This document shows positions 8,428 to 22,572 of a DNA stretch of 64,000 bases, one piece after another. A program made the position numbers and the translations under genes. A model generated the notes under the pieces. The model did no database searches, was not told the origin of the DNA, and was given only the letters and a program-made list of their open reading frames with translations. Source of the stretch: Escherichia phage SF; sequence record MH359124, one strand, 5' to 3'. Positions within the stretch are counted from its first letter, which is position 1, and the number at the start of each line of letters is the position of its first letter.

Positions 8428-8457
8428 GTTTACAACCAAGGACGGTTGGAGTATAAT
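8428..8457 (+). promoter_or_regulatory. early promoter (GTTTAC -35, TATAAT -10)
   Basis: GTTTAC, 18 bp, TATAAT; shares CCAAGGACGG(T/A)TGGAGTATAAT with promoter at 8986. Confidence 0.55.
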
Positions 8458-8488: not shown

Positions 8489-8983
8489 ATGAATATCAAT
8501 ACTACGGCTACTTACATCCTGAAAGACGAAAAACAAATCAACTGGTACGGTGCTTCAGTGCGAGCTTATGAAAAGTTTTGTGAAATTTTAGGTGCCACTC
8601 AAGGTAATAGTTTCACTATTGTTAACTTCATTAAACAAGCTGAAGGCCCTTGGTTATTCTTAGAAATTAAAAATTCATATGGTACAATTTCTACTACTGC
8701 CATTCCAAGCACCGACTTTGAACTCTTGATTGAAGAAGTAGAACCCGTTAAAGACATCTGTATTGATATGGATATCGCTTGTATGTACGGTACTCTGATT
8801 AAGCATATTGAGCCTACTGATTTATTGTGTAAATATGTTTCAATTCGACGCCCATTCGCTGGTCCAGTAAATGGATGGGTAACTGACCAATGGATTGAAG
8901 ACGGTGTTGAACTTCTGAACGTTGTTCACGCAAGTGATTTTAGTGTAGTTCCACGTAGTGCTGTGGTTAATATCCTTAATTAA
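8489..8983 (+). CDS. hypothetical protein, member 1 of a tandem paralog family
   Basis: 164 aa; C-terminal GWVTDQWIEDGVELLNVVHASDFSVVP matches the conserved C-terminus of the next two ORFs. Confidence 0.6.
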   Translation: MNINTTATYILKDEKQINWYGASVRAYEKFCEILGATQGNSFTIVNFIKQAEGPWLFLEIKNSYGTISTTAIPSTDFELLIEEVEPVKDICIDMDIACMYGTLIKHIEPTDLLCKYVSIRRPFAGPVNGWVTDQWIEDGVELLNVVHASDFSVVPRSAVVNILN

Positions 8984-8985
8984 TG

Positions 8986-9015
8986 TTGTACATCCAAGGA
9001 CGGATGGAGTATAAT
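8986..9015 (+). promoter_or_regulatory. early promoter (TTGTAC -35, TATAAT -10)
   Basis: Near-duplicate of the promoter at 8428. Confidence 0.5.
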
Positions 9016-9046
9016 GAATTCAATTTAACAAAGAGAGAGAGAAATT

Positions 9047-9502
9047 ATGATTACTATTGGTGAAATTAAGCGTGTATCAATTGCATCCCGGTCTAAAGCC
9101 GCAGGTCGTCTGGTTGAAGTTATCGGACTTCGCACAAATGGCATGGGACGTATTAAAGAAGTTAAAGTTCGAATCATTCCTAGTTTTGGACGTCAGGATA
9201 CTCAGTACGCTTACGTAAGTCCTAAATTCTTGGAAACTCCTGTGAGCGCTCATTTTGCTTCCACTGAACCTAATGTACAGTTCAAATGGGCCCTTTGCAA
9301 AGGCGTTGAATTCCAGACTGATAAAGAATTTGACTTCATCGATGAATACGGTTATCCAAGCAAAACTGATACTATGTGTGGCTTCATTAGTGACCAATGG
9401 GTTGAAGATGGTGAAAAGTTATACAATATCGTATTCTTAGGTGACTTCCGAGTTGTTAAAGAATCTGAAATCACTCGCTATGTGTCTCCTCGTAAAGCTT
9501 AA
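9047..9502 (+). CDS. hypothetical protein, paralog family member 2
   Basis: 151 aa; VSIASRSKAAGRLVEV N-terminus and GFISDQWVEDGEKLYNIVFLGDFRVV C-terminus shared with next ORF. Confidence 0.6.
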   Translation: MITIGEIKRVSIASRSKAAGRLVEVIGLRTNGMGRIKEVKVRIIPSFGRQDTQYAYVSPKFLETPVSAHFASTEPNVQFKWALCKGVEFQTDKEFDFIDEYGYPSKTDTMCGFISDQWVEDGEKLYNIVFLGDFRVVKESEITRYVSPRKA

Positions 9503-9511
9503 GGAATTATT

Positions 9512-9931
9512 ATGAATATTGTAAATCTCTCTACAAGTGATTACGTATATGTATCTGTTGCTTCTCGCTCTAAAGTTGCTGGGAAGTTGGTTGAAGTTCT
9601 TTCTGTAAGTTGTGGACTCTTTAGTCCACATCAAGTTAAAGTTCGTGATGCTGATGGCAACATTGGCTACGTCTCAAGCCAATTCATTGAACCAGAAGAA
9701 AAAGCGTTCAAATGGGGACTATGCAGATCGGTTTCTGTTGAAAAAGACCATGAATTCACTATTGCTGCGGCAACTGATGGAACGCCGTGGAAAACTAAGC
9801 AAATCGCCGGATTTATTAGTGACCGTTGGGTAGAAGATGGTGTTAAGCTTTATAACATCGTTTTCGCTGGACAGTTCATGGTAGTTCCTGAATTCCAAAT
9901 TAAAAAATATAGCCCAGCTGCTTTCGCATAA
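9512..9931 (+). CDS. hypothetical protein, paralog family member 3
   Basis: 139 aa; VSVASRSKVAGKLVEV and GFISDRWVEDGVKLYNIVFAGQFMVV motifs. Confidence 0.6.
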   Translation: MNIVNLSTSDYVYVSVASRSKVAGKLVEVLSVSCGLFSPHQVKVRDADGNIGYVSSQFIEPEEKAFKWGLCRSVSVEKDHEFTIAAATDGTPWKTKQIAGFISDRWVEDGVKLYNIVFAGQFMVVPEFQIKKYSPAAFA

Positions 9932-9935
9932 AGTT

Positions 9936-9986
9936 GTTTACTTCTCCTCTGGTTTTGATATTATAACCATATCAACCAGAGGAGAA
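9936..9986 (+). promoter_or_regulatory. early promoter embedded in a 13-bp perfect inverted repeat (PeSL-like cassette)
   Basis: GTTTAC at 9936; arms TTCTCCTCTGGTT (9942-9954) and AACCAGAGGAGAA (9974-9986) flank TGATATTATAA; right arm contains the SD of ORF 9991. Confidence 0.55.
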
Positions 9987-9990
9987 TAAT

Positions 9991-10515
9991 ATGTTAGTTT
10001 ACCGCGTAGAACGTAGTTTTTGTACTCAACGTGAATCATTACCAGGAATTGCTATCGAAGACGGTAAAGCCGTCAGAATTTGGGAAACCTCTTGGAATAA
10101 AGAACCTCGTTCGCCATACGGTTGGTCGGGCACCGACAACTCTGAAGAAACATGGGAGTTCCTTGATAAGCATGGAATACTCTCAGGTAACTTCTACCAT
10201 CATGGCGACAACTACAATGTCTCTAATCGTCCTACAGTAAATGAAGACAAACTCCTTGAACAAAATATCTTAAGATACTATAGAATTGAGCACACATTTG
10301 AATTGAGTGAAGATTGGGCTCAAGGGTTCTATTTTGGATTTGAAAGTGTTGACGCGGTTTATGCATGGTTTGATGACCAGGTGGATGTTGAACTCTTGAA
10401 AGCTAAAGGATACTACATAGCGGTCTATGAAGCACCTGATTTCATCCTCGGAAGTTGTCAATTAATGTTTAGACGTTCATTGGCAGAACAAGTTGATTTT
10501 ATTTTGCTAAAATGA
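9991..10515 (+). CDS. hypothetical protein
   Basis: 174 aa, ATG with GAGGAG SD. Confidence 0.55.
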   Translation: MLVYRVERSFCTQRESLPGIAIEDGKAVRIWETSWNKEPRSPYGWSGTDNSEETWEFLDKHGILSGNFYHHGDNYNVSNRPTVNEDKLLEQNILRYYRIEHTFELSEDWAQGFYFGFESVDAVYAWFDDQVDVELLKAKGYYIAVYEAPDFILGSCQLMFRRSLAEQVDFILLK

Positions 10516-10572: not shown

Positions 10573-10800
10573 ATGAAACGTCAAATCATTAAAAACGTAA
10601 CTACTGATTCAAACATCGATGAGTTTGAAGATGTTCTGTTTAATCCTGATTTAGTTGTTGTACAGAAAAACTGGACCGAATTTTTATGCTACACTGAAGT
10701 GGTTTACGTTTACGAAAAACTCGGCGATGAAATGCCTATCTATGGTATCTTCCGTGAAATCACTGAAAATGGTACAACTTATTGGAAGGAAACTTACTAA
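10573..10800 (+). CDS. hypothetical protein
   Basis: Start moved to ATG 10573 after GAGGAG SD; 75 aa. Confidence 0.45.
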
Positions 10801-11210
10801 TGGCTAATAAATTCCGCGTTAACTCATGGTACCAATTTATAGATAAACGTGCCCAAGAAGAGTTTATTAAAGACCACACTGATAATGGGATTTATGCACG
10901 ACGTCTTGGCATGGAACCATTTAAAGTATTAGATGTTGACCATCTTGGACGTCCTACTAAAATTGTGACATCTACTGGCACGGTTGGATACGCAACAGGC
11001 GGTGATATCCTTGATGAAAACTTTATCTGGCTCTCCACGAATGAATCAGAGTTCTTTGACGAAGTTGAAAATCCATATCAAGCGTCCGAAGAGCAAGATT
11101 CTGGTAAACTTGACGAATTGTCTGAATTTCCAGTGATGACGATTACTATCGAAAATAACGACCAGGCATGGTCTTTGTATCAAATGTTGAAAGCACATTT
11201 TAAGGAATAA
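10800..11210 (+). CDS. hypothetical protein
   Basis: ATG 10800 overlapping upstream TAA; 136 aa. Confidence 0.5.
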
Positions 11211-11394: not shown

Positions 11395-11820
11395 ATGGCT
11401 TTTAAAGGTTTTGAAGTTGGTAAGAAATATCGTATTATCAAAGGACAGGAAGATAATTTCTTGAGAATTCTTAATACGACTGGTAAACGTCTTAATACTA
11501 ATCTGCATACTACTTTATTGTCCAAAGATTTTATTGTGGAAGAGATGATTGGTTACGGCGTTTCGGTTATTGCCGTAGAAGCCGTAGGCGATTATGGCCG
11601 AACTATTCATAGTATGCAAGGTGATATTCTGCTTTATGGTGCAGAATTTAAATTCTTTGAAGAAGTTCCGGAACCAGATACATCTGTCGATTTCAAAAAA
11701 GGCTCTGTAGAATTTGTTGACGGTTCGGTGATCGTATCAGGTGATGTGGTCATTACAGTTAAAAGTGAACAAGGGCGTTTGGCTGCAATTGATGCACTTC
11801 AGAAAATTAAATTTAAATAA
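11395..11820 (+). CDS. hypothetical protein (immediately upstream of gene 39)
   Basis: 141 aa ORF followed by a terminator. Confidence 0.5.
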   Translation: MAFKGFEVGKKYRIIKGQEDNFLRILNTTGKRLNTNLHTTLLSKDFIVEEMIGYGVSVIAVEAVGDYGRTIHSMQGDILLYGAEFKFFEEVPEPDTSVDFKKGSVEFVDGSVIVSGDVVITVKSEQGRLAAIDALQKIKFK

Positions 11821-22221: not shown

Positions 22222-22250
22222 GTTTACTTTTGCTTCAAACATGATATTAT
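22222..22250 (+). promoter_or_regulatory. early promoter, copy A of a duplicated cassette of about 75 bp
   Basis: GTTTAC, 17 bp, TATTAT; cassette AGTTTACTTTTGCTTCAAAC.TGATATTATAGACCTATCAAAACAAA...TTGGAGAAATAAAATGTCTAAA. Confidence 0.5.
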
Positions 22251-22289
22251 AGACCTATCAAAACAAAACAACCAAATTGGAGAAATAAA

Positions 22290-22505
22290 ATGTCTAAAAT
22301 GAAATTAACCCAAAACACAACTACTCGTTTCGGTAAAGTTAAACCTGGTATGAATGCTCCCCGTAAAGCACTTGTTGAAGAATTAAATTTCTTAGAAGTT
22401 GAAATCAATTCTTTAGTGGTTCGCGGTTCAAATGGACATCATTTAGAAAAGCTTCGTTCTAAAAAGGCAAAACTTATTGGCCTTATTAAAGAAATGAGTT
22501 TGTAA
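22290..22505 (+). CDS. hypothetical protein
   Basis: 71 aa, basic; begins MSK like the following motA. Confidence 0.5.
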   Translation: MSKMKLTQNTTTRFGKVKPGMNAPRKALVEELNFLEVEINSLVVRGSNGHHLEKLRSKKAKLIGLIKEMSL

Positions 22506-22543
22506 ATTTTACCAGGGCTTTTGGAAAAAGAGCCCAAAATAAA

Positions 22544-22572
22544 GTTTACTTTTGCTTCAAACGTGATATTAT
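22544..22572 (+). promoter_or_regulatory. early promoter, copy B of the duplicated cassette
   Basis: About 90 percent identical to the cassette at 22222; precedes motA. Confidence 0.5.

Follow-up and report, generated by a model that had tools for sequence, protein, structure and literature searches.

The best-described relatives of the genes considered here come from phages T4 and RB69. The early protein MotB of T4 binds DNA of the host as well as glucosyl-hydroxymethylcytosine DNA, in both cases without regard to sequence. It co-purifies with H-NS and StpA, alters H-NS footprints and is toxic if overproduced, and with it burst size is doubled (PMC6070864, PMC7827196). MotB and MotB.1 have a C-terminal domain in common and differ in their N-terminal domains, one of the two has been suggested to derive from the other by duplication, and RB69 carries motB twice and motB.1 once, together with a 29-aa peptide (Patterson-West 2021, PMC7827196). 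The N-domain of MotB.1 has been assigned to an LSm-like fold family, marked by a bent five-stranded antiparallel sheet, together with GoF and Frd.2 (Kim 2025, PMC12152347). Early promoters of the T4/PST type follow the consensus TTTACW N17 TAYWAT (PMC4122927).

We analysed a 64-kb stretch of Escherichia phage SF (MH359124; hereafter the window), which is 96-98% identical to many Mosigvirus genomes (PHB12, PhAPEC2 and other RB69 relatives), with 97.9% identity to PHB12. A preliminary description of this DNA had singled out three consecutive plus-strand ORFs of 164, 151 and 139 aa in a hyperplastic region and had guessed at the T4 motB family. The ORFs are present (Table 1), and they lie within the variable early region between dexA and gene 39. 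The wider gene order is dda, dexA, ORF1, ORF2, ORF3, ORF4, cef, a goF-like gene, 39.2, another ORF and gene 39, and the position between dexA and cef is syntenic with T4, RB69, PhAPEC2 and Sf23. All three ORFs scored above the 25-bit gathering cut-off of Pfam PF17613 (motB, 'modifier of transcription'), confirming the family guess and disposing of the possibility, also raised at the outset, that they belong to unrelated known families. ORF1 aligns with T4 MotB.1 and ORF4 with T4 MotB.2, and database annotation of the neighbouring 96-98% identical genomes is MotB-like. Searches of NCBIfam gave no match for any of the ORFs, Rfam returned nothing except two sub-threshold chance matches inside coding sequence, and the MotB profile run against all PDB chains found nothing meaningful (best E 0.44). 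Very probably, then, the locus is the MotB-family gene array of Mosigvirus (RB69-like T-even phage), arranged as dexA, early promoter, motB.1 (ORF1), early promoter, motB (ORF2), motB-like (ORF3), promoter/hairpin and motB.2. The cluster, the paralogy and the RB69 copy number are already known from literature and database annotation. The analysis is of use mainly in assigning the locus correctly: what looks like a striking series of 'tandem paralogs with promoter cassettes' is the MotB/MotB.1 cluster, the paralogy and RB69 copy number of which were published in 2021.

Table 1. Positions of the genes, predicted promoters and protein domains of the MotB-family array (nucleotide positions in the window; aa, residues of the protein).
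Feature	Position	Strand	Details
Early-promoter-like cassette 5' of ORF1, left repeat copy	8428..8457	+	GTTTACA, 17-nt spacer, TATAAT; 11/12 sigma-70 consensus
ORF1, full-length MotB.1 homolog	8489..8983	+	164 aa, acidic, pI 4.6; phrog_2333; Pfam motB (34.1 bits)
ORF1 layout, AF2 model	aa 1-85; aa 86-113; aa 114-164		N-domain; low-confidence linker; C-terminal barrel
Early-promoter-like cassette 5' of ORF2, right repeat copy	8986..9015	+	TTGTACA, 17-nt spacer, TATAAT; 10/12 consensus
ORF2, MotB ortholog	9047..9502	+	151 aa; PF17613 1.6e-36 (126 bits); phrog_1671 8.7e-64
ORF2 layout	aa 1-62; aa 83-151		Basic KOW-like N-domain (+7.5), then linker; acidic C-terminal barrel
ORF3, second MotB paralog (RB69ORF010c)	9512..9931	+	139 aa; PF17613 6.9e-21 (75.2 bits)
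Right block boundary, 5' of ORF4 (motB.2)	9936..9986	+	Promoter-like site and 13-bp perfect inverted repeat (9942-9954 / 9974-9986)
ORF4 (motB.2)	9991..10515		

Both ORF2 and ORF3 have the two-domain layout of MotB, a KOW-like N-domain followed by a C-terminal barrel, and they are full-length paralogs of each other (45% identity over 137 aa; BLASTP 2e-32). The N-terminal motif that they had been reported to have in common is real, since SRSK.AG..VEV is nearly invariant in 136 MotB homologs. ORF3 orthologs (at least 60% identity) were found in about 206 phage records. ORF1 matched phrog_2333 over its full length (aa 1-164; 2.5e-81), whereas the Pfam motB profile covered only aa 84-159 (profile positions 78-153). 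Its N-domain differs from the KOW-like SRSK.AG N-domain of ORF2 and ORF3 and, because the MotB layout is thus absent, ORF1 was filed as MotB.1 rather than MotB. The 'triplication' originally proposed is therefore not one of whole genes, as ORF1 has only the C-terminal domain in common with ORF2 and ORF3. AF2 models reached a pLDDT of 77 for ORF1 and 85 for ORF2.

The C-terminus of each of the three proteins is formed by a homologous small beta-barrel, about 50-70 aa long, with the core G[FW][IV][ST]D[QR]W[VI]EDG..L.N[IV]V. The conserved C-terminal block noted beforehand proved significant: in BLASTP, ORF1 matched ORF2 at 2e-09 over 36 aa and ORF3 at 1e-09 over 29 aa, the similarity being limited to its last 29-36 residues. 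Comparison of profiles built from 136 MotB and 73 MotB.1 homologs (probability 98.6%, E 8e-16) stretched the homology to ORF2 83-145 and ORF1 113-162. In the curated alignment, MotB.1-type DPTDLLCK.V.I pairs with MotB-type FKW.LCKGV.F, and about 20 extra residues follow this first strand in MotB. The MotB.1-type core GWVTDQWIEDGVELLNVVH is present in ORF1 and in full-length MotB.1 homologs, and the core pattern (GWVTDQWIEDGVELLNVVHAG.[FY]SVVPRSAV) hardly varies among proteins with four or more different N-terminal architectures. HMM searches of 1633 six-frame segments from the 64-kb window found no C- or N-terminal domain copies beyond the three ORFs. A C-terminal-domain profile searched against 1.84 billion representative proteins matched no more than 34 clusters, with E <= 1e-10 for 21, and the true matches were small phage proteins; the MotB C-domain family is therefore narrow. 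In the distant matches, a KOW-like N-domain is joined to a MotB.1-type C-domain through a linker that contains D.DV..MY and DPTDLL. Long multi-stretch matches (P0270, P0274-P0279) were phage tail-repeat proteins and were rejected as spurious. The models suggest SH3/Tudor-like barrels; an OB fold had been proposed for the C-terminal domain.

Sequence divergence was assessed with orthologs taken from ten related loci. Among 10 Mosigviruses, protein identity was 97-100% for the flanking dda, dexA, motB.2 and cef, 91.5-99% for ORF1, 79-100% for ORF2 and 82-94% for ORF3; protein variation in ORF1-3 was 5-19 times that of the flanking genes. Nei-Gojobori averages over Mosigvirus pairs only gave dN 0.004, dS 0.087 and dN/dS 0.04 for dexA, and 0.007, 0.108 and 0.07 for ORF4; the corresponding values were 0.019, 0.173 and 0.11 for ORF1, 0.075, 0.338 and 0.22 for ORF2, and 0.044, 0.281 and 0.155 for ORF3. 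ORF1-3 are under gene-wide purifying selection. The description of the genes as 'fast-evolving' is thus right as to the amount of protein variation, but not as to the selection acting on them. The raised dS of ORF1-3 points to old alleles traded by recombination.

These values bear on the possibility of a recent tandem amplification, that is, a true triplication whose copies, driven by positive selection in an arms race with the host, now diverge fast. In its favour, the genes are neighbours on one strand and have motifs in common, and no proteins of the locus vary more than ORF2 and ORF3; ORF2 variation is clustered in an N-domain loop (aa 26-38) and in the linker, where indels occur and dN/dS rises to 0.37. 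However, dS between the core blocks of the paralogs is 1.3-2.3, or saturated and not computable, the N-domain of ORF1 is not homologous to that of ORF2 and ORF3, gene-wide dN/dS stays at 0.11-0.22, and all three genes occur in about 180-200 genomes, including that of Tequatrovirus Sf23. We regard such an amplification as highly improbable. The paralogs are ancient and have been kept by purifying selection. The protein sequence of the MotB.1 core has hardly changed between T4 and the window, at a dS of 1.15, which indicates strong purifying selection. Recent gene conversion as the source of C-terminal-domain conservation was ruled out by the high dS.

Exchange of alleles is visible at several levels. 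Compared with the window, Tequatrovirus Sf23 has 65-68% identity in dexA and cef and 81-95% in ORF1-3; the block has therefore moved between genera. The ORF2 allele of Shf125875 has a T4-like N-domain. Among MotB homologs, P0025 turns from ORF2 type into ORF3 type at GFISDQWVEDG, P0035, the sole motB on its contig, combines an ORF2 N-domain with an ORF3 C-domain, and P0103 combines a T4 N-domain with an ORF3 C-domain. Recombination also takes place within the genes, as ORF2/ORF3 chimeras joined within the conserved C-terminal coding block exist.

The motB.1 gene is broken in two reference records. In the T4 RefSeq genome (NC_000866, 4142-4651, minus strand) it encodes 119 aa ending ...GWVTDQWIGRWR*, with the remainder of the conserved barrel (EDGVELLNVVHAGEYSVVPRSAVVAILN) in a different frame; the newer T4 assembly OZ035787.1 has one G fewer in a 600-nt stretch that is otherwise identical, and encodes an intact motB.1 of 143 aa. 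Most T4-like phages have an intact motB.1. In RB69 (NC_004928, 4877-5373, minus strand) comparison with the window and PhAPEC2 shows two single-base insertions that split the gene and account for the '29-aa peptide' of the 2021 paper; the split may be an artefact of sequencing or a true mutation. A counterpart of that peptide was looked for in the 64-kb window and none was found, ORF1 being intact. Published MotB.1 experiments used the 13.8-kDa form, and so a protein lacking the greater part of the conserved C-terminal barrel.

The link of ORF1 to the LSm-like fold rests on Kim 2025, because comparison of its N-domain with the GoF-like ORFs of the window by hhalign was weak or negative (probability 50% and 0.5%). 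The locus contains two such paralogs (10782-11210 and 11395-11820), both matching phrog_622 and GoF-type families; it is the second that resembles the ORF1 N-domain weakly, also by HMM (E 0.016). The ORF1 linker contains a conserved, predicted disordered element, DMDIACMYGTL...PTDLL (window 8762-8827, aa 92-113), which is found again in MotB.1-type proteins of 179-183 aa, at the N-terminus, and in distant family members of the KOW type, in the linker, and which may be a short linear motif.

Nearly identical promoters had been noted before ORF1 and ORF2, and this was borne out. The left and right cassettes are identical at 26 of 30 positions, and the 22-mer CCAAGGACGGNTGGAGTATAAT occurs exactly twice in the window, at 8436 and 8994, against 0 occurrences expected by chance. 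The promoter repeat reaches 65 nt at 72% identity, in direct copies 558 nt apart, and both cassettes are of the T4/PST type and predicted to be promoters. The statement that each gene has its own promoter fails for ORF3, which starts 9 nt past the ORF2 stop with only an AAGGA ribosome-binding site upstream; ORF3 is predicted to be read from the ORF2 transcript. At the right block boundary, the RNA of 9936-9986 folds into a hairpin of -23.9 kcal/mol (z -5.4), whereas a search of the two ORF1-flanking cassettes for a PeSL-type hairpin found none better than in shuffled sequence (z 0.17 and -1.5). The -10 box lies inside this hairpin upstream of ORF4, and the Shine-Dalgarno sequence of ORF4 is base-paired in it (window 9936-9990). 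Upstream read-through transcripts could thus carry a masked ORF4 ribosome-binding site, and transcripts from its own promoter would not.

Early-promoter-like sites ([GT]T[TG][TA]AC., 15-17 nt, TA[TC][AT]AT) number 19 on the plus and 3 on the minus strand of the 64 kb, with short inverted repeats in many spacers. A pair of early-promoter-like 29-mers, at 22222 and 22544 and identical at 28 of 29 positions, flanks a 71-aa ORF (22290-22505), and 22222-22572 may be another promoter-bounded cassette.

In Shigella phage JK45, dexA is followed directly by motB, without ORF1, and the junction is chimeric, consisting of the left cassette through TATAAT and then the 5' leader of the right cassette. With this JK45 dexA-motB junction as query, 19 of the best 40 records, representing 17 distinct phages, had a contiguous junction of 269-271 nt. 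In the remaining records among the best 40 it measured 826-829 nt, about 558 nt longer, which is the spacing of the repeats. Crossovers lie just past TTTACA in NHEP36, phi25-307 and G2285, and after TGGAGTATAAT in JK45 and ST2; there are two positions and therefore at least two independent events. Evidently, the promoter copies flanking ORF1 act as recombination sites that bound a 558-bp module. Similarly, motB.2 is a presence/absence module: in ST2 and phi25-307, cef directly follows ORF3, and the ORF3-ORF4 and ORF4-cef cassettes are fused into a chimera at the junction. The promoter repeats at motB.1 and motB.2 thus provide a clean natural case of cassette gain and loss by short-homology recombination. 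ST2 (OM982647.1) is a 171-kb T4-like genome that GenBank taxonomy places in Guernseyvirinae; Kagunavirus, an apparent misclassification.

Among relatives, RB69 has the same three genes, and the 17 phages with the short junction lack ORF1. Their existence could mean that ORF1, ORF3 or both are redundant, decaying copies without a function of their own, as could the interruption of motB.1 in the RB69 and T4 reference sequences, the lack of a laboratory phenotype of a T4 motB.1 deletion (Kim 2025, PMC12152347) and the loss of positive charge from the ORF3 N-domain. Yet both genes are intact in every examined Mosigvirus locus that has them, with dN/dS of 0.11 and 0.155, the C-terminal core of MotB.1 is almost invariant across genera despite a dS above 1, and motB.1 is intact in the newer T4 assembly. 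Decay of this kind is very improbable.

The function of the array is likely to be early-expressed modulation of the nucleoid and of H-NS. The host interaction proposed beforehand would likewise follow from the published co-purification of T4 MotB with H-NS/StpA. By analogy with T4, host sigma-70 RNA polymerase would transcribe ORF1-3 straight after infection; the predicted early promoters precede ORF1 and ORF2, and ORF2 and ORF3 would share a transcript. ORF2, like T4 MotB, would coat DNA non-specifically through its very basic N-domain and perturb H-NS/StpA-DNA complexes, leading, if T4 is a guide, to a higher burst size. The N-domain charge is +7.5 for ORF2 (pI 11), +4.6 for T4 MotB and -1.4 for ORF3; the ORF2 C-domain has -5.2, and ORF1 is acidic throughout (-9.3). 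Because the ORF2 N-domain is very basic and the C-domain acidic, this charge pattern suggests that the KOW-like N-domain rather than the common C-domain binds DNA. For the C-terminal barrel, which is neutral to acidic, a part in protein contacts or oligomerisation is therefore more likely than one in DNA binding. On this view ORF3, with its non-basic N-domain, and the acidic ORF1 would be sub-functionalised partners rather than redundant DNA binders. The name 'modifier of transcription' and the database label 'transcriptional regulator' imply instead sequence-specific regulators of phage middle genes, as would those database annotations in general and the occurrence of KOW domains in NusG and Spt5; with T4 MotB, phage early and middle transcripts are unchanged (PMC6070864, PMC7827196). 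This is the least probable of the explanations considered, and we retain nucleoid modulation as the likely function.

A more elaborate version of nucleoid modulation, which we put forward as speculation and consider rather unlikely as a whole, would make the MotB.1-type C-barrel a Tudor/SH3-like protein-contact or oligomerisation module instead of a DNA binder, one that tethers interchangeable N-terminal effectors to a common target, such as H-NS/StpA-DNA filaments, the three paralogs forming one hetero-oligomeric nucleoid-remodelling or anti-silencing system. One effector would be the basic KOW domain, with DNA as its substrate, and another an acidic LSm-like domain acting on RNA or protein; others would be the further N-domains of the 180-aa and 250-aa relatives. 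The linker element D.D[VI]A.MY.T...DPTDLL could serve as a docking motif. Recombination, at the promoter repeats and in the conserved C-terminal coding block, would reshuffle the composition of the system from phage to phage.

Comparison with known systems places the locus as follows. To tandem SH3-like barrels (KOW of NusG/Spt5, Tudor of 53BP1, chromo/PWWP) the resemblance is one of fold only and not of membership, with 6-19% sequence identity and no sequence-level match from the MotB family to any solved structure. The PeSL cassettes of T4-type phages (Arbiol 2010; Comeau 2014) are likewise repeated early-promoter cassettes at gene boundaries in a hyperplastic region, and here too the indels between relatives, those of ORF1 and motB.2, start and stop in such cassettes and leave chimeric junctions; unlike PeSL, the ORF1-flanking cassettes have no significant stem-loop, and only the one upstream of motB.2 does. 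ORF2 and ORF3 match T4 MotB (PF17613; Patterson-West 2018, 2021) over their full length, and they agree with it in the two-domain layout, in lying between dexA and cef and in having an early promoter. Identity to T4-type MotB is 46% for ORF2, whose N-domain is basic as in T4, and about 37% for ORF3, which differs from T4 MotB in being shorter, in lacking the long linker and in its non-basic N-domain. ORF1 aligns end to end with T4 MotB.1 (GoF/Frd.2 'LSm-like fold' family, PMC12152347), with about 50% identity to T4-type MotB.1 and the same N-domain and MotB-type C-core; it has the whole C-terminal barrel, whereas the RefSeq T4 protein, with one extra G in its gene, ends within it. The motB.1 - motB - RB69ORF010c cluster of RB69 (PMC7827196), the published instance of motB in two copies beside one motB.1, has the same order and orthologs, with 92% identity for ORF2 (RB69 MotB) and 90.6% for ORF3, and differs in that its motB.1 is recorded as split ORFs of 132 and 29 aa, whereas that of the window is intact.
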